From Gemmatimonadota bacterium (lineage in GTDB: Bacteria; Gemmatimonadota; Gemmatimonadetes; Longimicrobiales; Gaopeijiaceae): a stretch of DNA of 64,000 nt. The notes beneath the pieces are model-generated. The model saw only the letters and a program-made list of their open reading frames with translations. It was not told the origin of the DNA and did no database searches. Location: positions 16,546 to 80,545 of the forward strand of contig SLCK01000014.1 of NCBI GenBank assembly GCA_007125845.1, written 5' to 3'. This document shows positions 21,145-56,128 of the stretch, in pieces (the first letter of the stretch is position 1; each line of letters starts with the position of its first letter). A program made the translations under genes and the position numbers.

Positions 21145-23580
21145 TCATCGCCCAGTGTCTCCTCCGCCCCTTTCGTCGTCGGCTCGGATCCTCGCCACAC
21201 GAAGAAAGAGATACCGGGACACCATCCATCCGACGGCAGCGACGGCCGAAGCGGCAAATGAGAGCAGGAGGGGCAGGGCGGCCACCAGCCAGAGCACATT
21301 CCACTTCGAGCTTCGCAGGAATTCGGCGACCCGACGACGTCTCCGAAGCCCCTTCACCTTCGTCACATCGGGCGCGCTCTCGCGCAGCGGCGAACGCGAT
21401 GCCGACCACAACACCGCACCCACTGCGGCGACGAGCACCCCCGCGAGGAAGGGAGCGCTCTGCGGAATTTCGGGAAGGACGTCCCGTCCGAAGGTGCGCA
21501 CCAGCCCCTCCATTGGTTCGGGGAGCGGCACGAGGAGGATCTCCATCCACCATCCCACAGCGGCCGCTATGGCCGCGCCCACGTCGGCAAGGGTGAGTCC
21601 CGAGCCGAGAATCAGGATCGGGGGAAAGAGGAGGGCCGCCGCCGCCAGAAGCAGGGAAACGGGCTCGCGAAGCCTCAAGGTGCGAAAGAAGCGGGCTCGC
21701 CCTGCCAGGAGAATCTCATCCACGCGGTCACCGCCCACGGGAGTTGCCGGCGGGGATGGCGGCACACGCGCGGCCTCGGGGGGCAGCATCGCACTCAAGT
21801 GTTCCCGTACGTACCTGTCCGCGGTGGCGTACCCGTGGTTCACGAGCGCACGAACCTCGATCTCCCCGAAACCGTCGAGGTCGGTGCGCAGAGAGGCGAC
21901 GTCCCGAGGACGCGTCGGGAGCTCGATTGGATCCGGCCCGGAGCGAACCGCGATCGGAGGCGACTGGATATGAAAATACGCCAGCCCGTCCAACCGACGG
22001 ACTTCACAGAAGTCGGCGAGCCGTCCGTCGGGCTGGGATCGCTCGACCGCCTGCGAGAGACGCCGGCGTTCCCGGACATACAGTCGCTGGAGCCCCGCGA
22101 GCGCGCCCCTCAGAATCTCGGGCACCCGCAGGACCAGACTCACGTGATCGGCGGGAGCGGCCTGCTCCTCGCGGAAGAGCCCTCCCGTGTCGCTCGCGAT
22201 GATCTGCGTGCACCCCTCATCGAGCAGCGCCGTGATTCCCATGTTGTCGAAGACGCCTCCGTCGGTCAGGGACAGGCGCGACACGAAGGCGTCTTCGTAG
22301 AGACCGTGAATGACCATCGGAGGAAATACCGGCGGAAAGCACGCGGAGGCGCCGACCGCCTCCGCGACCGTGAGCCGCCCCCAGTCCTTCTCGAGGTCGG
22401 GCGATGCCCGCTCTCCCGTTCTCAGCCAGTAGAGCTCGAGGATGAACTCCACGAGAAGGAGCTCCAGCTCCGGCGATGCCTCCGTCGCCGCTCTCAGGGA
22501 ACGGACCAGGTCTCGGTCAAGGTCGGCCAGAAGCTGGTGGAAGCGTGCCCGGTGAATTGCGACGTCCTCGTCCCGGATGACTCGGTCCGAGCCCGAGAGC
22601 TCCCGAATACACCATGCCTCCACCTTCACCGGACGGAGAGCGCCGAGCTCAACCGAGGGCAGCCTGCCCGGGAACCCCTGGACCTCGAAGAGCGCCTCCC
22701 AACCGGCCGGGAGCTCCTCAACGTCGCTTCCCCCGCGGCGCCACCACAGCGCGAGAGACGCGGTGCGATGATCGTCGTCCGATCCGGGAATGTCTCCCTC
22801 TTCGGTATCCCCCCCCAGGGCGAGCTCTTCGACATCCTCCTCGGCCAGATCGTGCAGGAGCCGCTTTCTAGCCAGGATTCTCGAGATCTCGTCGGCCCGG
22901 AAGGCCCCGAGCTGCCAGTCGCCCACCTCTCCGGCCGAGAACCAGAAGCGGGTGCCCGAGTTCAGAGAAGTGGCATTCAGCACGAGCGCCGTGAGCACCG
23001 ACCCCCCCGAATCCAACTGGTCCCGGTTGTAGGCTGAGAACTCCCTATCCGGAAGACGTCCTCCCGGTCGGATCCGCAGGTCCGTGAGGGCGATCCGCCC
23101 CGGCCGAAGCCACCGCTCGAGGAGCGGGCGCTCCCGGTACCCCTCGAGGTCCTGGGCCACAGCCTCGAAGAGATGGCGCTCATAGAGACGCGACATCCGG
23201 CGCGCAAGGGAATCTCCCGTAAGGAGCACCCTGAGGGTGCCGAGCGGGTTGACCAGGAGGAGCGTGCGCAGGTTGCGCCTCACACCGCGCACCAGCACCT
23301 GCTCGAGCTCACGAACGATCTCGACATACTCCTCCCGGGTCAGGCGACCATCGGGAGAACGCTCGAGCTCCCGCTTCAGGAGGAGAACGTACAGCGCCCC
23401 GACGATGGACCCTCCGGATACCGTGCTCAGGTGCTCGATCCGCCGCAGGAGGTCCAGCTCGGCCAGGCGCCGGAGCACGCCGAGGTGAAAGAGCGAGGCC
23501 CGGAATCCGCCACCTGCCAGCGCAAGGCCCAACTTGGACCGGGTCGAGGCCAGCGACCCTTCCGAATGCGCGTCCGTCAT
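21145..23580 (-). CDS. patatin-like phospholipase with large insert and C-terminal multi-TM domain
   Basis: 811 aa. Oxyanion GLALAGGGFRASLFHLGVL, nucleophile elbow STVSGGS, catalytic DGGVFDNMG about 380 aa downstream, and about 4 TM helices in the last 200 aa. Confidence 0.85.
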   Translation of the reverse strand: MTDAHSEGSLASTRSKLGLALAGGGFRASLFHLGVLRRLAELDLLRRIEHLSTVSGGSIVGALYVLLLKRELERSPDGRLTREEYVEIVRELEQVLVRGVRRNLRTLLLVNPLGTLRVLLTGDSLARRMSRLYERHLFEAVAQDLEGYRERPLLERWLRPGRIALTDLRIRPGGRLPDREFSAYNRDQLDSGGSVLTALVLNATSLNSGTRFWFSAGEVGDWQLGAFRADEISRILARKRLLHDLAEEDVEELALGGDTEEGDIPGSDDDHRTASLALWWRRGGSDVEELPAGWEALFEVQGFPGRLPSVELGALRPVKVEAWCIRELSGSDRVIRDEDVAIHRARFHQLLADLDRDLVRSLRAATEASPELELLLVEFILELYWLRTGERASPDLEKDWGRLTVAEAVGASACFPPVFPPMVIHGLYEDAFVSRLSLTDGGVFDNMGITALLDEGCTQIIASDTGGLFREEQAAPADHVSLVLRVPEILRGALAGLQRLYVRERRRLSQAVERSQPDGRLADFCEVRRLDGLAYFHIQSPPIAVRSGPDPIELPTRPRDVASLRTDLDGFGEIEVRALVNHGYATADRYVREHLSAMLPPEAARVPPSPPATPVGGDRVDEILLAGRARFFRTLRLREPVSLLLAAAALLFPPILILGSGLTLADVGAAIAAAVGWWMEILLVPLPEPMEGLVRTFGRDVLPEIPQSAPFLAGVLVAAVGAVLWSASRSPLRESAPDVTKVKGLRRRRRVAEFLRSSKWNVLWLVAALPLLLSFAASAVAAVGWMVSRYLFLRVARIRADDERGGGDTGR

Positions 23581-24080
23581 GGTTCAGAGTGGGAGTTGTA
23601 CTTCAGTCCGGTCATCCTGGCGAGCTCCTCGTCGACTCGACCGACAACGCAAAATGGTGTGCGCGCCCCGTGATCGATCTCAGGCTACGGGTCCACAACG
23701 CTCACGTCATAGGTCACGGCCCCGGAAACGGCAAGGGTGCCGAGCCCTGGTCCGCACCGCCTCCCAACCCCGCAACTGGCGTCCCCGGAGCCCATCTCCT
23801 ATTTTTCGACGGAATCCGTTCGGGCTCGCGCCCGGGGTGGTTCCCAGCGAAGACACATCCCCAGACTCGAGCCCGCATGCGCCCCACGGGCGATCCCCAG
23901 AGTATCGAGATTGCGGAGTTTCGCAACCGCGCTCAAGGACGGTCGAGATGAGCACAGATCGGTCGGGAGGATAATTCATTGCCCCCATTCCGTGGGAGTG
24001 ACCCACCTGACCAACCGGATCGGGGGTCGCTCCATGACACGCTTTGCCGTGCTGGCGCCGCAGCCGGCATCGAAGAGGCC

Positions 24081-26114
24081 ATGGAGCTGGGTCCCGTATT
24101 CGTCGAGGCCCTCTTCGAGGCGGCTCCCGATGCGATCTGCTTGCTCGCACACGGGGGGCGGATCCTCAAAGTGAACCGGGAGTTCGAGAGACTGTTCGGC
24201 TATTCCTTGGCCGACTGCCAGGACCGCAACATCGACGACTTGCTCGCTCCTTCGGAGCACAAGAAGGTGGCCAAGGATCTCACGAGACGGCTCGATGAGA
24301 GCAATCACGAGCGCGTGCGGCAGGACGTGATCCGCCAGGACGCTAGCGGAAATCTCATCCACGTCTCCATCCTCGCCCAACCCATCTTCCTGGACGACTT
24401 TCGGATCGGGACGTACGCGAGCTACCGGGACATCTCCGCTCGCAAGGCGCGGGAGCTGGACCTGCAGGAGGCCAAGCGGATGGCCGAGTCCGCCAACGTT
24501 GCCAAGACTCAGTTTCTGGCCAACACCAGTCACGAGATCCGCACACCCATGAACGCGATCATGGGAATGGCGAACCTCCTGGCCGAGACCGATCTCACCG
24601 AAGAGCAGAGGCGCTACGTTGAGATCTTCCGCTCCGCCGGTGAGAATCTTCTCGAGCTGATCAACGACATCCTCGACCTCTCGAGGGTGGAATCTGGCAG
24701 TCTGGAGTTGGAGGACGAGCCGCTGCACCTGGACGACCTCCTGAACAGTGTCGCCGAAGTCCTGGCGGTTCAGGCCCACAAGAAGGGGCTTGAGCTGATC
24801 GTGCGAGTTCCGCCGGAGCTGCCGACGGCCGTGCGGGGAGACGAGAATCGACTCCGGCAGGTGCTGACCAACCTGGTCGGGAACGCGGTGAAGTTCACCG
24901 ACAGTGGTGAGGTATCTCTGGAGCTGAGCGCGGCGAACCGGAGCAGGGCCACGCCGGAGGGAATCGTGCATCTGCTCGAGTTTGTGGTCTCCGACACGGG
25001 CGGCGGCATTCCTGAAGACCAACAGGCCGAGGTCTTCCTTCCGTTCACCCAGGCAGACGGCTCGACGACGAGGGAGCACGGGGGGTCGGGACTCGGTCTC
25101 ACCATCGCCTCACGCTTGGTGAAGCTGATGGGCGGCGAGCTCCAGCTCGAGAGCATTGTCGGCCAGGGGAGCTCCTTCCGCTTCGTCCTCGCGATGCCTG
25201 CCCATGATGAGGCTCGCAGAAAGGTCGAGGAGGTCGAGTCGGTCAATCTCAAGGGCAGCCTCTGCCTGGTGGTGGACGACCACGCGGTGAACCGGTTGAT
25301 CCTGAGCGAGATCCTCATGGGATGGGGCAGCGAAGTCGTGGAAGCGGGAGGCGGAATCGAGGCTCTCGCGCTCCTTCGCCGGGCAAAGAGGGAGGGGAAA
25401 ACTTTCGACTTCGTCCTCCTCGACGGGCAGATGCCGGGGATGGACGGATTCGAGGTAGCGGAGGTCATCGACCGGGAGCATCGCGGCACAGGCGTCACGG
25501 TGCTCATGCTGACGTCTCTCGACCGACGGGGAGACATCGCTCGGGCCAAGGAGCTCAACATCCACAGGTACATGGTCAAGCCGGTCCAGCGAAAAGCCCT
25601 CGCCCGGGCACTGTCGCGAGCACAAAGCGGCGCCGAGAGCAACGCCGCACAGGAGGCTGCGCCACGAACGGAGCCGACGACTCGACCCGAGCCGGCATCA
25701 GGCGCCTCGACTCCCATGCGCGTCTTGCTGGCAGAGGACGTGGATGACAATCGACTCCTGATCGAGCTGTTCCTGAAGGATGCGAACGTGGAGCTGGTCA
25801 TGGTCGAGAACGGGAAGGAGGCCGTGGAGGCAGTCCGAAGCGGCCGCACGTTCGACCTGATTCTCATGGACATCCAGATGCCAGTGCTGGACGGCTATCG
25901 GGCCACCCGAGAGATCCGCAGCCTGGAGAAGGCCAATGACCGGGGGCGCGTGCCGATACTGGCTCTCACGGCCCACGCTCTGGAGGAGGAGCGCCGATTG
26001 ACACGGGAGGCCGGCTGCGACGATCACCTGACCAAGCCGATCCGGAAGGACGAGCTGATCTCGATCGTCGAGCGATATCGGGCAAACCCGAAGCCGGGGC
26101 AGGCAGACGCATGA
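24081..26114 (+). CDS. hybrid sensor histidine kinase: PAS - HisKA - HATPase - REC - REC
   Basis: Track ORF starts at 23979. Preferred ATG is 24081 (MELGPVFVEALFEAAPDAI), after GAAGAGG. H-box FLANTSHEIRTPMNAI. HATPase blocks DTGGGI and GGSGLGL. Two receivers (VLLDGQMPGMDG; LILMDIQMPVLDG). Confidence 0.85.
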   Translation: MELGPVFVEALFEAAPDAICLLAHGGRILKVNREFERLFGYSLADCQDRNIDDLLAPSEHKKVAKDLTRRLDESNHERVRQDVIRQDASGNLIHVSILAQPIFLDDFRIGTYASYRDISARKARELDLQEAKRMAESANVAKTQFLANTSHEIRTPMNAIMGMANLLAETDLTEEQRRYVEIFRSAGENLLELINDILDLSRVESGSLELEDEPLHLDDLLNSVAEVLAVQAHKKGLELIVRVPPELPTAVRGDENRLRQVLTNLVGNAVKFTDSGEVSLELSAANRSRATPEGIVHLLEFVVSDTGGGIPEDQQAEVFLPFTQADGSTTREHGGSGLGLTIASRLVKLMGGELQLESIVGQGSSFRFVLAMPAHDEARRKVEEVESVNLKGSLCLVVDDHAVNRLILSEILMGWGSEVVEAGGGIEALALLRRAKREGKTFDFVLLDGQMPGMDGFEVAEVIDREHRGTGVTVLMLTSLDRRGDIARAKELNIHRYMVKPVQRKALARALSRAQSGAESNAAQEAAPRTEPTTRPEPASGASTPMRVLLAEDVDDNRLLIELFLKDANVELVMVENGKEAVEAVRSGRTFDLILMDIQMPVLDGYRATREIRSLEKANDRGRVPILALTAHALEEERRLTREAGCDDHLTKPIRKDELISIVERYRANPKPGQADA

Positions 26115-28270
26115 GCCGAACTCCTGTCCGACGCGAGAGCTGGCTCCTTCCGGAGACGTTCAGCGCCTTCAAGCGTGATCTCGTCGAGCGTCGCTCTCCC
26201 GACCCCGACGTGATCGGAGAAGCCCAGACCGTGGGGCCCACGCAGCTCTACGAGCTCGGTCGTATCCTGCACCTTCCCGACGACCAGATCTGCCGATACC
26301 TCGCTCGATTTCTGGAGCTCCCTTACCTCGAGCGGCTCCATGCCGAGGAGCTTCTTGGAAGTGCGCTCTCGCGCGAGTTCTGCGAGGCGAACCTCGTAGC
26401 TCCCCTCACTGATGGCCGGGTCGTCCTCTCCAACCCCTTCGACTGGGCACTCATCGACACGCTCGAAAGGACGCTGTGGAGGGGTGCGGCGCCGGACGTC
26501 GCCCTGGCCGAGCCGGAGACCATTCTCACGGCTACTCGCCGGGGGGATGACGAAATCCTCCAACACGACCTTACGAAATCGGAAGTCCTCTCCCTTGAGT
26601 CGGCCGAGTCGACCGCCAGCGAACACGAGGGGCAGTCAGAAAGGGCGTCCGCCGCCGCGATCGGGAACGAGATCATGCGGGGAGCCGTGCGGGAGAAGGC
26701 CAGCGACGTCCACTTCGAGCCAAAAGAACGCGGAACGCTGGTCCGGTACCGGATCGACGGGGAGATGCACGACATCCGCATGATCGACCGGGAAACGGGC
26801 ACAAGGGTCATTTCGCGACTCAAGGTCTCTGCGGGCATGAACATCGCGGAGCGACGCAAGCCGCAGGACGGCTCTGTGGAAGCAAGCTTTGACGGTCGTC
26901 GGTTCAAGCTGCGCTTGGCCACCAGCGCGACCACCGACGGAGAGACGCTCGTCGTCAGAATCCTCGAACCCCACGTCGAACCGATCCCCCTGGAAGATCT
27001 CGGTTTCACGGAGGATCAAGCGGCCGACCTGCGCGAGATGGCGGGGCAGCGACAGGGAACGATCCTCGTCGTGGGACCGACCGGCTCGGGCAAGTCCACG
27101 ACCATCTTCACCCTCCTCAGCACGGTCGACGGGGAAAGTCGCAGCATCATGTCGGTCGAGGACCCGGTCGAGTATCGGATTCCTCACGCCAACCAGCAGC
27201 AGGTCCAGGAGCGGGCGGGAATCACCTTCGAGTCGCTGCTGCGCTCGGCGATGAGGCAGGACCCCGATATCCTGTTCCTGGGTGAAGTGCGCGATCGCTT
27301 CTCGGCTCTGGCCTTGCTTGATTTCTCGAGCTCGGGCCACCTGACGATCTCGAGCCTCCATTCATCGAATGCGACCACCGCCATCTTTCGACTGGAGCGG
27401 CTGGGCGTCGATCGCAGTGCCATGTCGGAGGCCATTTCGGGAATCGTCGCCCAGAAGCTTTTGAGATCCCTGTGCACATCGTGCCGAGAGATTGGGGAGA
27501 TCACCGCAGAAGAGCGACGCCTCCTCGAAGCTTTCACGGACGATGTTCCGCAGGTGGTGGCTCGGGCCGTTGGCTGTCCGGCGTGCCGGGAAACCGGCTA
27601 TTCGGGCCGGCAGGCCGTATGCGAAGTCATTCGAGTCGACCAGACGATCGCGCAAATGATTCAGAAGGGGGAGCCGGTTGCGAAGATCCGCACCCACCTT
27701 GCCCGGTCCGGCCGCTACCTCATCGGCCACCACGTCCTCGACCGGATCCGCTCGCAATCCATCCCGGTCCGGGAGGCGTACGAGCAGATCCTGATCGAGG
27801 AGCTGCACCTGAAAGACCTGCCTGCGGAGCCCCCCGCGTCGTCCGAATCGGCGTCGCCCGAGGAGGAGGTCGCGCCGATGATCCTTCTGGTGGACGATGA
27901 CCCCGACTTCCATGCGCTGGTCGAGGTCTTTCTCACCGGGGCGGGCTACCGGATGGTCTCGGCGTACGACGGCCTGGAGGGGATGATGGAGCTCGCCCGA
28001 ACACCGATCGACCTGATCCTCTCCGACATCCGAATGCCGAACCTCGACGGTGTGAAGCTCATGGAGATGATCACGAACAAGGGTGTCGACGTGCCGGCCA
28101 TCTTTCTGACCGGCGCCACCGACGACGGGCTCGAAGCCAAAGTGCTCTCGCTGGGCGCCGCGGACTTCATGCGAAAACCCATCTCCCGGGACGTGCTCCT
28201 CCTGCGGGTCAAGAAAGTCCTGGCGACCAAGGGCATTCAGCCGCCCTCCCCGAGCGAGAGCCTCCCATGA
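26111..28270 (+). CDS. GspE/PilB-family type II/IV secretion/pilus assembly ATPase with C-terminal response-regulator receiver domain
   Basis: 719 aa. ATGA overlap with the HK stop. T2SSE_N-like N-terminus, Walker A VGPTGSGKST, tetracysteine CTSC...CPAC. C-terminal REC is ILLVDDDPDF...DLILSDIRMPNLDG...FLTGATDD...FMRKP (acceptor Asp codon 28025-28027). Confidence 0.9.
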   Translation: MSRTPVRRESWLLPETFSAFKRDLVERRSPDPDVIGEAQTVGPTQLYELGRILHLPDDQICRYLARFLELPYLERLHAEELLGSALSREFCEANLVAPLTDGRVVLSNPFDWALIDTLERTLWRGAAPDVALAEPETILTATRRGDDEILQHDLTKSEVLSLESAESTASEHEGQSERASAAAIGNEIMRGAVREKASDVHFEPKERGTLVRYRIDGEMHDIRMIDRETGTRVISRLKVSAGMNIAERRKPQDGSVEASFDGRRFKLRLATSATTDGETLVVRILEPHVEPIPLEDLGFTEDQAADLREMAGQRQGTILVVGPTGSGKSTTIFTLLSTVDGESRSIMSVEDPVEYRIPHANQQQVQERAGITFESLLRSAMRQDPDILFLGEVRDRFSALALLDFSSSGHLTISSLHSSNATTAIFRLERLGVDRSAMSEAISGIVAQKLLRSLCTSCREIGEITAEERRLLEAFTDDVPQVVARAVGCPACRETGYSGRQAVCEVIRVDQTIAQMIQKGEPVAKIRTHLARSGRYLIGHHVLDRIRSQSIPVREAYEQILIEELHLKDLPAEPPASSESASPEEEVAPMILLVDDDPDFHALVEVFLTGAGYRMVSAYDGLEGMMELARTPIDLILSDIRMPNLDGVKLMEMITNKGVDVPAIFLTGATDDGLEAKVLSLGAADFMRKPISRDVLLLRVKKVLATKGIQPPSPSESLP

Positions 28271-28602
28271 CCGGGGAACACGCCTCCGGCCTCGGCCCGG
28301 GCACGCCCACCCGGGCCGAGGTGCCATCAGAGCTCGCCCCCCTGATTCCGCGTTACCTGGAGAACCGGCGAGCCGACGTCATCCGCCTTCGGGAGGCGCT
28401 CGAGCGGGGCGACCTGGACACCGTGGGCTCGGTGGGTCACTCGATGAAGGGGACCGGTGGCGGATACGGCTTTCAGGAGCTCACCGAGATCGGCGGCCGG
28501 ATCGAGGCGTGTGCCCGAGCGAAGGACAGCTCGTCGCTCCGGGAACTCCTGGAGGAGCTCGAGGCGTACCTGGAGGAAGTGGACGTCGTGTACGTCGAGT
28601 GA
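28267..28602 (+). CDS. histidine phosphotransfer (Hpt) domain protein
   Basis: 111 aa. ATGA overlap with the ATPase stop. HSMKGTGGGYGF motif (His codon 28438-28440). Confidence 0.85.
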   Translation: MTGEHASGLGPGTPTRAEVPSELAPLIPRYLENRRADVIRLREALERGDLDTVGSVGHSMKGTGGGYGFQELTEIGGRIEACARAKDSSSLRELLEELEAYLEEVDVVYVE

Positions 28603-28645
28603 TCTCCGCAGTGAATAGGTCTTGCGGGCCTTGGTCCACGGCCTT

Positions 28646-30208
28646 CTACAGGACCTCTCGCCAACGAGTCACTCGAGCGCTTCCTCCCTCCGTGACCACC
28701 CCGGTTCGCCCTTCGCCCAGCGCTTCGTCGTAGTGGATTCCGCCCGCTCCGGTCACGTCGACGGAGCTACCTCGAACCGCGCCGTACAATCCCCCCGAAC
28801 CGATCACGGAAACGTCCGTGCGGGGCGCGTACACGGACGCGTAGATCTGGGTACTTCCACCGATCCGGACACCGTCGTGCCCGGCGAAGGAGGAGAATAT
28901 CGAGAAGGTCGGAATGACCACGGGTGAACCCCCTTCCACAATCGTCATGGTCGGAGCGGCGTTTTGGTTCACGAGGCCTCCTCCCAGGTTGACGCGCCCG
29001 GTCACGTACACCTCGAGTGCGGCGCCCGGCTCGATGATCAGCTGCGAACCGCCCCCAAGCGTCATGTCGCCGTCCACGAACAGTCGCACCGGAACGCCCT
29101 CTCCGGGAGTGGAGGGCGCCTGTATTCTCACGATCGAGCTACCGCCCATCGAGAAGTTGCCGTTCACGAAGACCTCTCCGACTCCGTCCGACGCGAAGTT
29201 GATTTGATTCGTCGCGCCGGATGAGAAGGAAGGGCTGAAGGCGACATCTTCCTCGAAGTTGACGGGGGAGGGTCGCCAACCCGAGTAGTTGCCGTTCTCG
29301 AAGTCCCCCGGCCCCCCGGGCCGAGCTCCTTCTAGCGTGCCATCCACGAAGTCGTTCACGTTCAAGGGATCACAGGTCCCGTGAGGAGCGGGCACGTCGG
29401 CCCCCGGCTCCAACTCGGCCCCGGGGCACCACCACGTACCGGGCGTCTGCACAGCTCCACCGGCCAACACCGGATTTGCTGGACACGTCGGATTCCCCGA
29501 AAAAGTGATGTCGCCGGTGGCCATCATGGATCCCTCCACGGTTGCGCTCCCGCTCATCGTCAGGTTCCCTCCGACGTGGAGGTCACCCTTCACGAGAGTG
29601 TTTCCGGGGAGGGAAACGTCACCCGACAACGTCGTGACCCTCGCATCCGAGCTGGCCTGCCCGGACAGATAGGGTCCATCCCGGGAATCGTAGGAATCGA
29701 TCCGTCCCGATCCCCTCAGCACGACGCCGTTGCACCCCACGACCGCCGACTGGAAGGGCGAGGCCGTGGATCGTCCGCCTCGGGAGAACTCCACCTCGAG
29801 TTCTCGGCGCACCCTCCCCGAGGCATCTTCGCCCACGATTCGGATCAACACGCCGTTTCCTTCGAAGTCGACAGCGTCGACCCACCAGCGAGCGTCTGCG
29901 TGGTTGAGATCGAGGCCCGGCCCGGATGGAAGCCCCTCTCCGACTTGCTCCAGCGCCGCCCCCGCATACTCTCCGTCTTCGACCCACGAGAGTTGATCGG
30001 ACAAGAACCCGTTGACGACGAACGCCGCCCCCGACTCCGCCGCCTGGATCGCTCGTACCGAGGAGTTGAGCCGACCCGCATAGTCCGCTTGCTGGACGGC
30101 CACTGCGGCCACGGAACCGCCCGCAATCGTGGCGACTACGAGAAGGATCAGCAAGAGCGGAAGGACGAATCCGCGCTCATTCTCGAAGGTGCGACGTGGA
30201 GCGGTCAT
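28646..30208 (-). CDS. PilX_N-like pilus assembly protein with large beta-helix-like C-terminal domain
   Basis: 520 aa. N-terminus ERGFVLPLLLILLVVATIAGG...AIQAAESGA resembles the PilX N-terminal domain. The central region has repetitive G/V/T/S strands (GDVSLPGNTLVKGDLHVGGNLTMSGSATVEGSMMATGDITFSGN). ATGA overlap with the upstream gene. Confidence 0.65.
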   Translation of the reverse strand: MTAPRRTFENERGFVLPLLLILLVVATIAGGSVAAVAVQQADYAGRLNSSVRAIQAAESGAAFVVNGFLSDQLSWVEDGEYAGAALEQVGEGLPSGPGLDLNHADARWWVDAVDFEGNGVLIRIVGEDASGRVRRELEVEFSRGGRSTASPFQSAVVGCNGVVLRGSGRIDSYDSRDGPYLSGQASSDARVTTLSGDVSLPGNTLVKGDLHVGGNLTMSGSATVEGSMMATGDITFSGNPTCPANPVLAGGAVQTPGTWWCPGAELEPGADVPAPHGTCDPLNVNDFVDGTLEGARPGGPGDFENGNYSGWRPSPVNFEEDVAFSPSFSSGATNQINFASDGVGEVFVNGNFSMGGSSIVRIQAPSTPGEGVPVRLFVDGDMTLGGGSQLIIEPGAALEVYVTGRVNLGGGLVNQNAAPTMTIVEGGSPVVIPTFSIFSSFAGHDGVRIGGSTQIYASVYAPRTDVSVIGSGGLYGAVRGSSVDVTGAGGIHYDEALGEGRTGVVTEGGSARVTRWREVL

Positions 30209-30801
30209 CCTTCCAACTCCAGACGATCGAACACCTTCTCCCGAATCACGGCGGTCACCTCCGTTTCGCCCAGGAAGCGTCCCCGTCCGGATCTCGCGTC
30301 GACGAAGAGGCGGAGGCGCACAGCCAGGACGTCCGGAGCGAGCTCGACGGGGGCTTCCGAAGAAAAGCTGTCGACAGTTCCGATCCCCAGGGTGTCCAGG
30401 CCGAAGGTCACCTCGAAACCCGTGACCGCCGGTGCGATCAGCCGCGTCTCTCCGCTTTCCCCATCAGGCGGCCGGGCAACGAGCCCCGGACCCGAAGCCT
30501 CCAACCAACAAGTCTCGCTGCCGCACAGCGGCTCGCTTCTCGGGCCGGACAGAGCGAGTCGTGATCCATTGCTCGAGTCGTGGACCTCCGCTGCGTTCCT
30601 GACGAGGTTCAACAAGAGTTCCACCGACCGATGCAGCTCCGTCTGTGCGTCCCGCACCGCCTCCTGCTCTTCGGCCACGCGTGCGAAGATCAGAAAAATC
30701 GATAACGCGCCGGTCATGAGAATGCCCGAGACCACGAGGACGACCATGAGCTCGATGAGGGTGGCTCCCCGGCGGCCGAGCGCCCAGCCAGGGTCCCTCA
30801 T
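30205..30801 (-). CDS. prepilin-type N-terminal cleavage/methylation domain protein (PilW-like minor pseudopilin)
   Basis: Start trimmed to ATG 30801 (ATGA overlap with the upstream stop): MRDPGWALGRRG/ATLIELMVVLVVSGILMTG, with Glu at +5. Confidence 0.7.
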   Translation of the reverse strand: MRDPGWALGRRGATLIELMVVLVVSGILMTGALSIFLIFARVAEEQEAVRDAQTELHRSVELLLNLVRNAAEVHDSSNGSRLALSGPRSEPLCGSETCWLEASGPGLVARPPDGESGETRLIAPAVTGFEVTFGLDTLGIGTVDSFSSEAPVELAPDVLAVRLRLFVDARSGRGRFLGETEVTAVIREKVFDRLELEG

Positions 30802-31193
30802 GGTTGGATCACGGGCAGGCGCACCCGATACTCGTACTCCATCGGGTCCTGCGCTCCGGCCTCTTCCCATCGGATTCGGATCCGCACGAGGCCGGGCTCT
30901 CCTGATTCGATGAACGCCGCCTCCCCCGACCATCCGGCTGCAGAGCCGGCGTGGGAATCTTGCCAGGCGTCCACCTGGCCGAGCGGGTCGTTGAGATCGA
31001 GCCACATCCGCTCGCCCATATCCAGCGCCTGCGTGTGCGCCATCGTGCGCATGAAGCTGTCACTACTCGTCCTGGAGGCGAACCAGAAGAGCTGACCGAG
31101 CGCGAGCATGCCCACGCTCAGGATGACCAGGCTGACCAGGACTTCGATGAGCGTGAATCCCCCGTTTCCTCGGGTTCCTGCACGAATCGGCAC
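30798..31193 (-). CDS. prepilin-type N-terminal cleavage/methylation domain protein (PilV-like minor pseudopilin)
   Basis: 131 aa. MPIRAGTRGNGG/FTLIEVLVSLVILSVGMLALG, a class III signal with Glu at +5. Confidence 0.75.
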   Translation of the reverse strand: MPIRAGTRGNGGFTLIEVLVSLVILSVGMLALGQLFWFASRTSSDSFMRTMAHTQALDMGERMWLDLNDPLGQVDAWQDSHAGSAAGWSGEAAFIESGEPGLVRIRIRWEEAGAQDPMEYEYRVRLPVIQP

Positions 31194-31256
31194 GGTGTCG
31201 CTCCAGGATGGAGAGCGAGCCGACCTCGGTTAGAGGCGACTTCAGGGCACCCCAAG

Positions 31257-31272
31257 TGCAACAGACATGCCA
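31257..31272 (-). promoter_or_regulatory. sigma54-type (-24/-12) promoter candidate for the pseudopilin operon
   Basis: Minus strand reads TGGCAT-GTCTG-TTGCA (GG-N10-GC spacing; consensus TGGCAC-N5-TTGC). Lies 64 nt upstream of the PilV-like ATG, in the correct orientation. Confidence 0.45.
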
Positions 31273-31396
31273 ATACGCCACCAATGGCCTATACCATTGC
31301 TTGACAACGACTTACGCAAGAAAGGAGGCGGGAATGTCCGCCTCGGCGCGAGGAAGAATGCGATGCCGTCTTGCGCTTCGCCCCAGACAAGGGTCG

Positions 31397-32377
31397 TCAG
31401 CCCTCCACCGCCTCCAGAAGCACGTCGCGATGGGCCTCGAGGAGCTCGGCCACGGTAATCGGATCGCGTCCGGTCAGCTCCCTGACCGCGTCGCTCATCA
31501 CCTCGTAGGAGTCGAAGCCGGCCATCACCCCGGCCGGCGCCTGCTCGTCCCCGCCCTCCCCCTCCACCACCTCTACCGAAGCGCCGGTCAGGTCGCTCGC
31601 GATCCGGGCAATATCCGAGCGGGTCACGAGCTCCGATCCCGTGATGTCGTACGCGCGATTCTCGTGCCCGCTTCCGATGAGAACGCTCGCCGCGGCCGCC
31701 GCACAGTCCTCACGAGCGACGTAGGCGGTGGGTACCTCGTCGGGTTGGACGACCACGCTCCCCTCCGACAACATGTTCGCCGCCTGGTTCACCAGGCCGT
31801 TGGCATAGAGATGGTTGCGAAGCATCGTCCAGGCGACCCCGCTCGCCCGGATGTACTCCTCGGTGCTGCGATGATCGAAGGCGGAAGTGGTACTGGGGTT
31901 GTCGACGTCGACCGAGGAGGTATAGACGATATGCTGCACACCGGCCTGGACCGCCGCATCAATTGCACTCTGGTGCCACTCGACCCGATCGGGCACAGGG
32001 CTGATCGAGATGAGGAGCATTCGGGTTCCCCCCTCGTAGGCGGCCGGGAGGGATTCGGGCTCGCTGAAATCTCCGTAGCGCGTGCTGGCGCCGGCCTGGG
32101 CGTACTCTTCGAGACCCTCGGGCGTCCGACTGACCAGGATGAGTTGGGAGGGCTCAACCCCGAGCGCGAGCAGCTCCTCCACGACCAGACCGCCCAACTG
32201 ACCTGAAGCGCCCGATACGATGATCCGCTCCTCCGACGTGTCCGGTGCTCCAGCTTCGTCGGGCGCCTCGCCGCCGCACGCGGCGAAGAGGAAGGCCGTC
32301 GCGAAGGCGATCGAGTGCCATCTTCGCGAACCCCGCCGCAGATTGCCGCCGACACCGTTGAACAACGTTCCGCACAT
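31397..32377 (-). CDS. NmrA-like / atypical SDR NAD(P)-binding protein with lipoprotein-type signal
   Basis: 326 aa. AGGAGG 6 nt upstream of the ATG. N-terminus HSIAFATAFLFAAC, then Rossmann motif IIVSGASGQLGG. Confidence 0.8.
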   Translation of the reverse strand: MCGTLFNGVGGNLRRGSRRWHSIAFATAFLFAACGGEAPDEAGAPDTSEERIIVSGASGQLGGLVVEELLALGVEPSQLILVSRTPEGLEEYAQAGASTRYGDFSEPESLPAAYEGGTRMLLISISPVPDRVEWHQSAIDAAVQAGVQHIVYTSSVDVDNPSTTSAFDHRSTEEYIRASGVAWTMLRNHLYANGLVNQAANMLSEGSVVVQPDEVPTAYVAREDCAAAAASVLIGSGHENRAYDITGSELVTRSDIARIASDLTGASVEVVEGEGGDEQAPAGVMAGFDSYEVMSDAVRELTGRDPITVAELLEAHRDVLLEAVEG

Positions 32378-32578: not shown

Positions 32579-33622
32579 TCAGGAGGGCCGTCCACCGATC
32601 TCCCGACGGACGGACGGCGCCACGCTGGTTCCGAGCAGCTCGATCGCCCGAAGTACGTCAGTGTGCGGCATCGGGCCCACCGAGAGCTGGAGAAGGAAGC
32701 GATCGTGGCCGAAGAGCTCATGTTGGTGGAGAATCTTCTCGACGACCTGCTCCGGGTCGCCCACGACCTGCGCTCCGTCGAGCGCGGTCTCGGCCTCGAA
32801 CCGGGCCCGAGAGACCGGTGGCCATCCTCGTTCGCGCCCGATCCGGTTCATCACCTCCGCGAAAGGCGGGAAGGCGAGTTCGACCGCCTGCGCGGCGTCC
32901 GGAGCGAGAAAGCCGTGGGAATTGATGCTCAATGCGAGAGTCGAAGGATCGTGTCCAGCCCTCTCCGCAGCTTCCCGGTAAAGCTCCACCATCGGCTTGA
33001 AGCGCGACGGTGCGCCTCCTATGATGGCGAGCGCCATGGGCAGCCCCAGAGTGGCCGCTCGGACCACCGAAGCGGGCGTGCCCCCCACCGCGACCCACAC
33101 CGGAAGGGGATCCTGCTCGGGACGGGGCAGCACAGGTAGGCCGTCGATCGAAGCCCGATGCCGCCCGGACCACCGAATCCGCTCCTCTTCCCGAATCCTC
33201 AGGAGAAGATCGAGCTTCTCCGAGAAGAGGTCCTCGTAGTCGGTGAGCTCGTATCCGAAGAGGGGAAAGGATTCCACGAACGAACCCCGCCCCGCCATGA
33301 TCTCCGCCCGGCCCCGAGAGATCAGATCCAGGTGCGCGAAGTCCTGGAACACCCGCACTGGATCGTCCGAGCCCAGCACCGACACCGCGCTGGTCAACCG
33401 GATACGCCGCGTGCGAGCTGCCGCAGCCGCCAGAACCACCGCCGGCGCCGAGACCGCATAGTCTGGGCGATGGTGCTCCCCCACGCCGAACACGTCGAGC
33501 CCGACCTGATCGGCCAACTCGATCTCCTCGATCAGGTTCCGGATGCGGGTGCCGGCTTCCTGCTGCCTGCCCGTCTCCGGATCGACGCGAGTCTCGGCGA
33601 AGCTATAGATTCCGATTTCCAT
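32579..33622 (-). CDS. LLM-class (luciferase-like) flavin-dependent oxidoreductase
   Basis: Start trimmed to ATG 33622 ([10 protein letters not shown]). Motif [14 protein letters not shown] and TIM-barrel-like layout. The upstream extension is R/P-rich and lacks support. Confidence 0.8.
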
Positions 33623-33867
33623 GAGCCCCCGGGGCCTACGCCTTCCGACTGCCGGATGGGTTCGCCTGCACTGCGGGATCCGAGTCCGCTCCCTCGGAAC
33701 TCGACCTTCGGATCCTGACATGGCGGGCCAACCAGGTCAAACCGGAGGCACCGACTTCCGGCCGCGATCGAGATTGCGCCGAGGCGGCGGCGGCGGTAGG
33801 ATCGACGCCGCCGGAAGCTCCGGCGCACACCTTCGGCCCACTGTGCGGGAGAATCGACATCGACGAT

Positions 33868-34749: not shown

Positions 34750-35286
34750 ATGAACATTCACATGAACTGGACCTCCGGCTTACGTCCAGGCACTGCGAAG
34801 AATGACTTTCCCGGGACCGACCTGTGCGAGTTGGTGAGCCAGATGCCGTTGGGGAGACTTCTTCCTCCAGGGGTTCTGATGTGCGCCGACCTTCCGACGC
34901 ACCCCTGCTCTGCCGCAATCGAGACCCGCCGGATCCGGGAGATCCTGGTGGACCTCGTCCTCAACGCTCGCGCAGCGGTGGGTCGTGAAGGAGTCGTTCA
35001 CATTGGGATCGATCGCGTGGTTTCCCCTCCCGCACAGGGACGGCCCGCGCTGACCTGGATTCAGATCGAGGTGTCGGACAGCGGGCCCCGCCTGGCACCC
35101 GCCGCAGCGGCCCTGCTCTTCGATCCCTCGTTCAGCGAGGTCGGTCAGGGTCTGGGACTGTCCGGGGCGGCTCTGCTGGTCGCGCAGAGCGGCGGCTCGA
35201 TGAAGCTCGTTGGAGACGCGAGCGACGGAAACACCGTGCGAGTGCGCATCCCGGCATTCCCGGCACTCCCGGCGCTCTCGGCTTGA
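34750..35286 (+). CDS. stand-alone HATPase_c (histidine-kinase-like ATPase) domain protein; no DHp/H-box
   Basis: 178 aa. N-box LVDLVLNARAAV, G1-like VSDSGPRL, G2 GQGLGLSGA. No HisKA or sensor region, so it may be a remnant or a split kinase. Confidence 0.5.
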   Translation: MNIHMNWTSGLRPGTAKNDFPGTDLCELVSQMPLGRLLPPGVLMCADLPTHPCSAAIETRRIREILVDLVLNARAAVGREGVVHIGIDRVVSPPAQGRPALTWIQIEVSDSGPRLAPAAAALLFDPSFSEVGQGLGLSGAALLVAQSGGSMKLVGDASDGNTVRVRIPAFPALPALSA

Positions 35287-54700: not shown

Positions 54701-56128
54701 ATGAATGCACTGGTCTGGTTCCGTCGCGACCTGCGCGTCGCCGACAACACCGCCCTTCACCATGCCTCCGACGACGGTCAGCGCGCCGTGATCGGGATCT
54801 TCCTCCTGGCCCCCGGCCAGTGGCTGGAGCACGACGACGCCCCCTGCAAGGTCGACTTCTGGCTGCGGAACCTGAAGGAGCTCCGGACCGAGCTGGGTCG
54901 ACTCAACATCCCCCTCCTGGTGCGTCCGGCGGAGCGATTCCACGAGGCTCCACAGGCCCTGCTCAGAGCGGCTTCCGAACACGGTTGCGAGCTCCTGCAC
55001 TTCAATCGCGAGTACGAGGTCAACGAACAGGCGCGCGATCGGGCGGTCGAAGAGGCGTTCGCGGAACGTGGCCTCGTTGCGCGCGGATTCGACGACCGTG
55101 TGATCCTCGAGCCGGGCTCGGTCCTCACCCGCAAACATGAGTATTACCAGGTCTTCACGCCCTACCGAAACAGGTGGCGCGACACGGTTTCAGAACGGGA
55201 TGTAGACCCCCTCCCCCCTCCCCCGCGGCAGGAGCCCGCGGGCATCGACTCCGACCGCGTCCCGGAGACGGTCGAGGCGTTCGCCGCCTCGGAGGTGGAC
55301 CCCACCCTCTGGCCCGCTGGCGAGGCCCGCGCGATGGAGCGCCTCGAGGCCTTCTCGGGGGAGAAGCTCGAACGCTACGGAGTGGACCGGGACCGCTACG
55401 CACTCGATGCGACGAGCGGCCTTTCCCCCTACCTCGCCGCCGGGGTGCTCTCCCCACGACAGTGTCTGGAGGCGGCGCTCGCGGAGAACCGAGGCCGACT
55501 GAGCTCCGGCCGCGAGGGGCCGTTGGCCTGGATGGACGAGCTGATCTGGCGAGAGTTCTTCCAGCACGTTCTCGTGGGCTTCCCGAGGGTGTCCATGCAC
55601 CAGCCCTTCCGCCAGGAATCCGACCTGGTCGCATGGAACGAGGATGAGGAGCACTTCCGGGCCTGGTGCGAAGCTCGAACCGGGTATCCCGTCGTGGACG
55701 CCGCAATGCGGCAGCTCGTGCAGGTAGGGTGGATGCACAACCGACTCCGGATGATCGTCGCCATGTTCCTGTCGAAGCACCTCCTCATCGACTGGCGTCG
55801 GGGGGAGAAGTACTTCATGCGACATCTGATCGACGGAGACCTCGGATCCAATAACGGAGGGTGGCAGTGGTCGGCGTCGACCGGTACGGACGCGGCCCCG
55901 TACTTCAGGATGTTCAATCCCACGAAGCAGAGCCGGCGCTTCGACCCCGAAGGTGAGTTTCTTCGCCGCTACCTTCCCGAGCTCGATCGCCTGGGCGCCG
56001 ATTCGATCCACGAACCGGCACGGCTTCCCGAAGATGACCGGAAACGGCTGGAGTACCCGGACCCGATCGTCGATCATCAGGCCGCGCGCGAACGTGTGAT
56101 CGAGCGCTTCGAAGAGGCCCGGAAATGA
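54701..56128 (+). CDS. phr: deoxyribodipyrimidine photolyase (class I CPD type)
   Basis: Start trimmed to ATG 54701 (MNALVWFRRDLRVADNTAL). FAD-binding domain blocks WREFF, GWMHNRLRMIVAMFL, DGDLGSNNGGWQW, FRMFNPTKQ. Confidence 0.9.
   Translation: MNALVWFRRDLRVADNTALHHASDDGQRAVIGIFLLAPGQWLEHDDAPCKVDFWLRNLKELRTELGRLNIPLLVRPAERFHEAPQALLRAASEHGCELLHFNREYEVNEQARDRAVEEAFAERGLVARGFDDRVILEPGSVLTRKHEYYQVFTPYRNRWRDTVSERDVDPLPPPPRQEPAGIDSDRVPETVEAFAASEVDPTLWPAGEARAMERLEAFSGEKLERYGVDRDRYALDATSGLSPYLAAGVLSPRQCLEAALAENRGRLSSGREGPLAWMDELIWREFFQHVLVGFPRVSMHQPFRQESDLVAWNEDEEHFRAWCEARTGYPVVDAAMRQLVQVGWMHNRLRMIVAMFLSKHLLIDWRRGEKYFMRHLIDGDLGSNNGGWQWSASTGTDAAPYFRMFNPTKQSRRFDPEGEFLRRYLPELDRLGADSIHEPARLPEDDRKRLEYPDPIVDHQAARERVIERFEEARK

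Follow-up and report, generated by a model that had tools for sequence, protein, structure and literature searches.

Organization of the locus

A three-gene cassette encoding putative minor pilins was studied in a 64,000-nt stretch of Gemmatimonadota DNA (hereafter the window), which corresponds to positions 16546-80545 of contig C138 in a 3.2-Mb metagenome-assembled genome (MAG; G000) of 145 contigs and ~95% completeness. The genes, here named geneA, geneB and geneC and together called the trio, occupy window positions 28646-31193 on the minus strand, and a predicted sigma54-type promoter stands ahead of them:

31257..31272, minus strand: sigma54-type promoter, TGGCAT-N5-TTGCA, 63 nt upstream of the geneA start
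30798..31193, minus strand: geneA, GTG start, 131 aa, leader MPIRAGTRGNG/GFTLIEVLVSLVIL (G/FTLIE)
30205..30801, minus strand: geneB, 198 aa, leader ending ALGRRG/ATLIELMVVLVV (class III signal G/ATLIE)
28646..30208, minus strand: geneC, 520 aa, leader ending FENERG/FVLPLLLILLVV, no Glu at +5

Both junctions are ATGA overlaps, the ATG of geneB overlapping the TGA of geneA and the start of geneC overlapping the end of geneB in the same way.

GeneA and geneB encode PilV- and PilW-like prepilins

The geneA and geneB products score above the 21.2-bit cut-off of the prepilin leader family N_methyl (PF07963/TIGR02532), with 34.4 and 25.6 bits respectively, and the class III signal is kept in all aligned relatives of either protein. 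Searches of their profiles against PDB sequences returned only the generic pilin N-terminal helix. The geneA product, conserved in relatives with 44-66% identity, matches the PilV family TIGR02523 with 47.4 bits, under the 52.2-bit equivalog cut-off and over residues 12-64 only, and is described here as PilV/GspI-like on the basis of its size, operon position and N-terminal similarity. The geneB product reaches 21 bits against PilW (PF16074), under the cut-off of 26. The best PDB folds for its AlphaFold2 (AF2) model (pLDDT 85.6) are 152-159-residue chains from the complex of XcpV with XcpW (5bw0; E 1.9e-4, target TM 0.61), and chain 2ret_D of the EpsI-EpsJ complex is also among its best fold matches. 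The geneB product is thus assigned, with a sub-threshold profile score, as GspJ/PilW-like from its chain length and predicted fold.

GeneC encodes a predicted cap pilin with a large beta-solenoid

The geneC product belongs to DUF7305 (PF23981; 62.4 bits, cut-off 27), of which it is the sole copy in the genome, and also scores against the ice-binding-like family pAdhesive_15 (33 bits) and choice_anch_A (32 bits); a literature search on DUF7305 found no paper. Its N-terminus reads ERG/FVLPL, with Leu at +5 in place of Glu. In the AF2 model, built from a 33-sequence alignment (pLDDT 86.1, pTM 0.67), an N-terminal hydrophobic helix (residues 15-69) leads into a small pilin sheet (79-142), which is followed by a beta-solenoid (156-494) and a last strand (512-519) that rejoins the pilin domain, so that the ~340-residue solenoid appears as an insertion ahead of that strand. 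A search of the model against the PDB with Foldseek at E<=1e-3 returned the three chains of ComZ (6qvi), a tip pilin linked to competence in Thermus thermophilus, and no others (E 1.9e-6 to 2.1e-5, probability 1.0), the next matches being DUF3494 ice-binding proteins. By sequence, the geneC profile gave weak matches to ice-binding proteins in the PDB (E about 0.005), and a single-sequence search of geneC against the PDB gave no match.

In ComZ, too, a GspK-like pilin domain that lacks Glu5 is joined to an ice-binding-protein-like solenoid ahead of the last strand; the protein is proposed to cap the fibre, and GspK also lacks Glu5 (PMC6561018); the same solenoid-before-last-strand architecture is present in every cyanobacterial PilX (PMC13759059). 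GeneC is encoded right after the PilV- and PilW-like genes, an order repeated in more than ten relatives. The presence of Glu5 in the geneA and geneB products and its absence from the geneC product is the pattern expected of a tip complex of the I-J-K type, with K on top. GeneC is assigned as a cap pilin of the PilX/GspK/ComZ type, confidently modelled as a pilin fold with a large beta-solenoid.

These results bear out the initial annotation of this DNA in two respects. Its description of three ATGA-coupled genes, two of them with class III signals, agrees with the coordinates, the translations and the N_methyl scores, and its assignment of the products as PilV-, PilW- and PilX-like, the last with a beta-helical tip body, is supported by the family scans, the AF2 models and the fold match to ComZ.

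A conserved, predicted sigma54-type promoter

A strict sigma54 pattern (TGGCA[CT]-N5-[TC]TGC[AT]) occurs 14 times on both strands of the whole 3.2-Mb genome, and the probability of a chance match in the 150-nt region ahead of geneA is roughly 3e-4. Near-identical elements precede the trio in G477, a sister genome of the same genus (TGGCACACGGATTGCA), in the closest metagenomic relative L078, whose geneC is 75% identical (TGGCATATGTATTGCA), and in L016, a metagenomic or MAG locus (TGGCACATGGATTGCA). Weaker GG-N10-GC elements were found by a looser pattern scan in L012 and read by eye in L014, L018 and L019. No sigma70-like promoter was found in window positions 28400-31500. The trio is best explained as a self-contained cassette driven by this conserved predicted sigma54 promoter.

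The genome encodes rpoN and 16 full-length enhancer-binding proteins (EBPs), including the PilR beside pilA on contig C55, and none of the 16 is located on C138. A PilR regulon that includes the trio is plausible, although the strict pattern is absent in front of the C55 pilA and the weaker GG-N10-GC matches ahead of that gene and upstream of a pilin gene on contig C1 were found by eye only. A second strict site (TGGCACGGTGCCTGCA) lies in the window 34672 region (C138:51217, plus strand), ahead of a stand-alone HATPase_c gene (34750-35286), such that C138 holds two of the 14 strict sites in the genome yet no EBP.

Conservation and distribution of the trio

The three genes are conserved as a unit in more than ten other loci, at 30-75% amino-acid identity. 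Close relatives of geneC number about 25, with identities of 42-75% and lengths of 510-530 aa throughout, and there are also many distant relatives in DUF7305. Seven metagenomic or MAG loci outside the genus were inspected (L012, L014, L016, L018, L019, L079 and L080), and the unit of ~130, 200 and 515 aa was intact in all seven, with flanks unrelated from one locus to the next.

In a wider scan of GTDB species representatives with a 20-sequence geneC alignment, 77 loci were retrieved with 10-kb flanks, spanning Gemmatimonadota, many Gammaproteobacteria, Opitutae and other groups. The cap gene is immediately preceded by four prepilin genes in 37 of these 77 loci, an arrangement also seen in Shewanella khirikhana, and an ordinary T2SSE ATPase is encoded nearby in eight, all from Halomonadaceae. 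The cap gene is present in 5 of 314 genomes of the family to which the window belongs and in 2 of 301 in a phylum-wide sample. The trio is thus a patchily distributed accessory cassette.

One MAG of the family, G450, contains two diverged copies of the trio, on contigs C82 and C181 (L024/L082 and L028/L087), with cap genes 61% and 42% identical to geneC of the window, so duplication of the cassette, or its acquisition on two occasions, is possible.

A complete type IVa pilus machine is encoded elsewhere in the genome

A genome inventory, consisting of a class III signal scan of all contigs together with family searches, identified a complete canonical type IVa pilus (T4aP) system away from the trio. 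Contig C55 contains pilA (124 aa), the sensor kinase gene pilS, the gene for the NtrC-type PilR, pilM, pilN, pilO, pilP and an AMIN-secretin gene, together with a PilD-type A24 peptidase at C55:59276. Contig C78 contains a bona fide PilB, whose TIGR02538 score of 750 bits exceeds the equivalog cut-off, as well as PilT and, at the contig edge, PilC, which is the sole PilC-type platform in the genome, the Tad locus aside. A genome search for PilY1 (PF05567) was empty and control genomes were equally silent, so the empty result does not demonstrate its absence.

The C55 cluster also holds two minor-pilin sets of its own, making the trio the third in the genome. The first comprises four genes, encoding a GspH-like protein, two further prepilins and a 314-aa protein without Glu5, and the second encodes FimU-, PilV- and PilW-like proteins and a 392-aa PilX_N protein with a weak pAdhesive_15 match. 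The two four-gene sets are consecutive (C55:18651-24363), between pilR and pilM, and both end in PilX/GspK-like proteins that lack Glu5 and carry solenoid-like GDxxLxG repeats. The possibility that the trio is a recent copy of these sets was rejected, BLASTP giving only helix- and repeat-level similarity.

Other filament-related genes in the genome include a Tad locus on C86 (TadA, TadB/C, peptidase and secretin), a further secretin and a partial A24 peptidase on C28, and two more PilT-family genes, on C105 and C128. Contig C31 encodes an orphan PilB-like ATPase (C31:~55004-56074) with a cyclic di-GMP-binding N-terminus of the MshE type, which scores under the PilB and GspE equivalog cut-offs and lies about 3 kb from a sigma54 EBP gene (C31:51654); no platform or pilin genes are present on this contig, and the ATPase counts as the genome's second unassigned motor of the extension type.

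The initial annotation had noted the absence of a major pilin, platform, peptidase and secretin from the window, which holds for the whole of the 90-kb contig C138: no class III signal besides those of geneA and geneB, and no T2SSF, A24 or secretin match, was found anywhere on it. From this it had proposed a reduced or non-canonical filament module formed with a neighbouring receiver-fused ATPase or, alternatively, an accessory complex that primes a machine whose genes lie elsewhere. The complete T4aP system on C55 and C78 favours the alternative. The reduced module is not supported, since both observations that the initial annotation had named as refuting it were essentially made: the inventory revealed a canonical pil system that includes minor pilins and a PilB, and co-conservation is lacking outside one genus, as described below. 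The lack of a platform or major pilin on C138 also speaks against it.

The neighbouring phosphorelay operon

The trio lies beside an operon encoding a PAS hybrid histidine kinase (HK), a T2SSE ATPase with a C-terminal receiver (GspE::REC) and an Hpt protein:

23979-26114: PAS hybrid HK (family scan)
26111-28270: GspE::REC, T2SSE ATPase with C-terminal receiver (family scan)
28267-28602: Hpt gene, convergent with geneC
31325..31344, minus strand: terminator-like hairpin ending the NmrA-like gene
31397-32377, minus strand: NmrA-like gene, upstream flank of the trio

The HK, the receiver-fused ATPase and the Hpt protein are as the initial annotation described them. The Hpt gene does face the 3' end of the trio, with 43 nt between the two ends rather than the 44 bp given previously. 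The hairpin at 31325..31344 is weak evidence that the trio is a separate transcription unit, because shuffled sequence is expected to give as many hairpins as were counted in this region. A search for direct or inverted repeats on either side of the block of trio and NmrA-like gene, as marks of mobile insertion, gave no convincing case.

Receiver-fused ATPases were surveyed using as query a fragment spanning the ATPase-receiver junction (threshold E<=1e-25), and were found in 68 of 314 family genomes, often in 2-3 copies per genome. In some alignments the match continues across one stop codon, perhaps because of split genes or errors in assembly. Among the other trio-bearing genomes of the family, the fusion is present only in G450, where it is on a different contig from the trio, and no such ATPase was detected at this threshold in G457, G462 or G469. 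Co-occurrence of the trio and GspE::REC in genomes gave a Fisher's exact p of 0.30, or 0.62 when the query genome is left out, and the partnership with the ATPase operon proposed in the initial annotation is not matched by co-conservation outside one genus. Inspection of loci gave the same picture from both sides. No T2SSE ATPase, receiver or Hpt gene was found near the trio in any of the seven inspected loci outside the genus, and no receiver-fused ATPase or Hpt gene within 10 kb of the geneC relatives in any of the 77 GTDB loci. Conversely, none of 12 other HK-GspE::REC(-Hpt) loci had a class III signal gene or trio homologue in its flanks (up to ~10 kb).

Within the genus, the sister genome G477 has an HK-GspE::REC-Hpt operon that is syntenic with the window (64-72% amino-acid identity). 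The trio and the NmrA-like gene are missing after Hpt in this genome, since the next gene after Hpt is an orthologue of the luciferase-like gene found at 32579-33721 in the window. A geneA orthologue (74.5% over the first 55 codons) is present instead in divergent orientation, its start 505 nt upstream of the HK gene, and is cut by the contig end; no geneC was found elsewhere in G477 even at E<=1, the trio there being cut by the contig end. The intergenic region of G477 (L059, on G477:C9, 15312-15815) carries the sigma54 promoter of the trio, and the region upstream of the trio in L078 is homologous to it.

The ancestral order in the genus was likely a patatin-like gene, geneC, geneB and geneA reading leftward, then HK, GspE::REC and Hpt reading rightward, then the luciferase-like gene reading leftward, and the trio of G000 sits across the operon from the ancestral side. 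In L078, the orthologue of the 811-aa patatin-like gene is located directly after the trio, 234 nt downstream on the same strand (L078:2992-5007, compared with window 21145-23580). In the window, the phosphorelay operon sits between the patatin-like gene and the trio, indicating a local block rearrangement in the genus. The ~500-nt 'empty' gap upstream of the HK gene (window 23581-24080), which may be a scar of the rearrangement, has in common with the G477 intergenic region a 12-nt block only (TTCCGTCGAAAA). The adjacency of trio and operon is thus confined to one genus, through one local rearrangement, and is weak evidence for a link; it is most likely a quirk of that genus and not a conserved partnership.

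Comparison with known systems

The closest parallel to the trio is the pilA1-pilA2-pilA3-comZ locus of Thermus thermophilus (6QVI; PMC6561018), in which a small PilV-like and a PilW-like gene are likewise followed by a large cap gene. ComZ, like geneC, combines a Glu5-less GspK-like pilin domain with an ice-binding-like triangular beta-solenoid ahead of the last strand. By contrast with the Thermus locus, the trio is found in a different phylum (Gemmatimonadota), lacks a PilA1 (FimU/GspH-like) gene and an adjacent major pilin, and is predicted to be sigma54-driven; identity is 11-12% and the TM-score 0.25-0.29. In cyanobacteria, several FimT-PilW-PilV-PilX sets (Com, EPS) are present per genome alongside one T4aP machine, as in G000, and it has been shown experimentally that several priming complexes serve one machine there and yield distinct filaments (PMC13759059). 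Cyanobacterial PilX, like geneC, has a bulky beta-solenoid, which is proposed to replace the PilY1 cap (PMC13759059). Unlike these sets, which are phylum-wide in cyanobacteria, the trio is present in ~2% of family genomes, and it has no FimT-type member.

The GspI-GspJ-GspK tip of type II secretion systems (T2SS; XcpV-XcpW 5BW0, EpsI-EpsJ 2RET) follows the same three-subunit I-J-K logic with a Glu5-less top. However, no GspC, D, F, G, L or M gene is present beside the trio, a solenoid replaces the alpha-domain of GspK, and the genome contains T4aP and Tad machinery and no T2SS. Multiple alternative minor-pilin sets per T4aP machine are also known in Myxococcus xanthus and Pseudomonas aeruginosa, in operons away from pilMNOPQ and pilBCD, each comprising four minor pilins and PilY1. 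The trio differs from these clusters in having three genes, with a solenoid cap in place of PilY1.

Function of the trio and alternative explanations

In our assessment the trio probably encodes an accessory, third priming or tip complex of the ComZ/solenoid-PilX type, which serves the shared T4aP machine. This reading agrees both with the cyanobacterial model of several priming complexes per machine (PMC13759059) and with the model of ComZ as a receptor at the tip (PMC6561018). Regarding assembly on this machine, location at the tip, the ligand and the activating EBP, we infer the following sequence of events. The trio would be switched on by one of the 16 EBPs. GeneA, geneB and probably the cap would be processed by the PilD-type peptidase encoded on C55, and the three proteins would come together in the inner membrane, on the single PilC/PilMNO platform, to form a tip or priming complex. 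The bona fide PilB would then polymerise the major pilin (the C55 PilA or the C1 pilin) beneath this complex. The Glu5-less cap, at the filament tip, would display its beta-solenoid as an adhesin or as a receptor for DNA or polysaccharide, and may also act as a PilY1-like plug. The trio would thereby probably set an alternative filament type or tip specificity, in a subset of filaments and under particular conditions.

Four points weigh against this interpretation. The TM-scores between geneC and ComZ are low, despite a Foldseek probability of 1.0. No FimU/GspH-type fourth subunit is encoded in the trio, which would have to recruit one from elsewhere or work without it. Its presence in only 5 of 314 family genomes means that it is dispensable for basic piliation. 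Lastly, the adjacency to the phosphorelay operon survived rearrangement in G477 and is therefore a hint of a local link, which our interpretation takes to be coincidental or only regulatory. This last point leads to the explanation of one joint module made up of the trio and the HK-GspE::REC-Hpt operon, in which a phosphorelay-gated alternative extension motor builds a trio-primed filament or pseudopilus on the shared PilC/PilMNOPQ, or, in a weaker form, the phosphorelay merely controls the sigma54 promoter of the trio through an EBP. Adjacency in two arrangements within the genus (convergent at 43 nt in G000; divergent at 505 nt, across a promoter-bearing region, in G477) is consistent with such a module, as are the equal numbers of PilB-type ATPases (C78 PilB, the C31 PilB-like protein and GspE::REC) and minor-pilin sets, three of each, and the lack of a platform or pilins belonging to GspE::REC itself. 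Nevertheless, a single local block swap can explain both arrangements, and the surveys argue against a module throughout: the operon is absent near the trio at 7/7 loci outside the genus, receiver-fused ATPase and Hpt are absent at 77/77 GTDB loci, 12/12 other HK-GspE::REC-Hpt operons lack a class III signal gene, three trio-bearing genomes lack the fusion, a fourth has fusion and trio on different contigs, and the Fisher tests show no significant association with or without the query genome. We consider the one-module explanation unlikely. A related idea, that in this genus a ComZ-type tip cassette was recruited beside GspE::REC as an alternative, signal-switched programme on the shared T4aP platform, is quite improbable, and we would give equally little credence to its mechanistic elaboration, in which phosphorylation of the motor receiver, perhaps together with a sigma54 EBP fed by Hpt, times the solenoid-tipped filament against the standard pilus.

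The accessory tip complex could also have a more specific role, as the tip of a dedicated competence (DNA-uptake) pseudopilus with the solenoid as DNA receptor and thus a functional counterpart of Thermus PilA2-PilA3-ComZ or of the Com set of cyanobacteria. Among solved structures ComZ is the closest, the order of PilV-like, PilW-like and cap genes is that of the Thermus pilA2-pilA3-comZ locus (PMC6561018), and distant relatives in Shewanella and Vibrionaceae-like genomes lie in stand-alone five-gene minor-pilin operons. However, identity to ComZ is only 11-12%, the distribution of the trio is very patchy, and the solenoid fold does not specify DNA binding, because in cyanobacteria solenoid-bearing PilX functions in motility and EPS adhesion as well (PMC13759059); a dedicated role in competence therefore seems rather unlikely. 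That the trio is instead left over, decaying or non-functional, from a filament system since lost might be suggested by its orphan location, its patchiness and the presence of three of the canonical four core subunits. Against such decay stand three intact, translationally coupled frames, conservation at 42-75% identity with invariant Cys, Gly and Trp positions, a conserved sigma54 promoter and confident models of both geneB and geneC, and we regard it as highly improbable.

Implications

The accessory tip complex is a kind of system that is already known, and its new parts are modest. They consist of the membership of Gemmatimonadota in this tip design, three minor-pilin sets in one genome, a conserved predicted sigma54 promoter and a genus-specific neighbourhood with a phosphorelay-controlled ATPase. 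For studies of the GspE::REC family, the tempting link with these pseudopilins is unsupported, and they should not be presumed to be substrates of the ATPase. The analysis provides a functional label for an unannotated cassette, of whose products two match nothing in Pfam but the pilin leader and one carries a DUF, and extends the ComZ/solenoid-PilX tip design to Gemmatimonadota. The presence of three minor-pilin sets alongside one pilus machine fits the model of "one machine, several specialised filaments" that is emerging from cyanobacteria.

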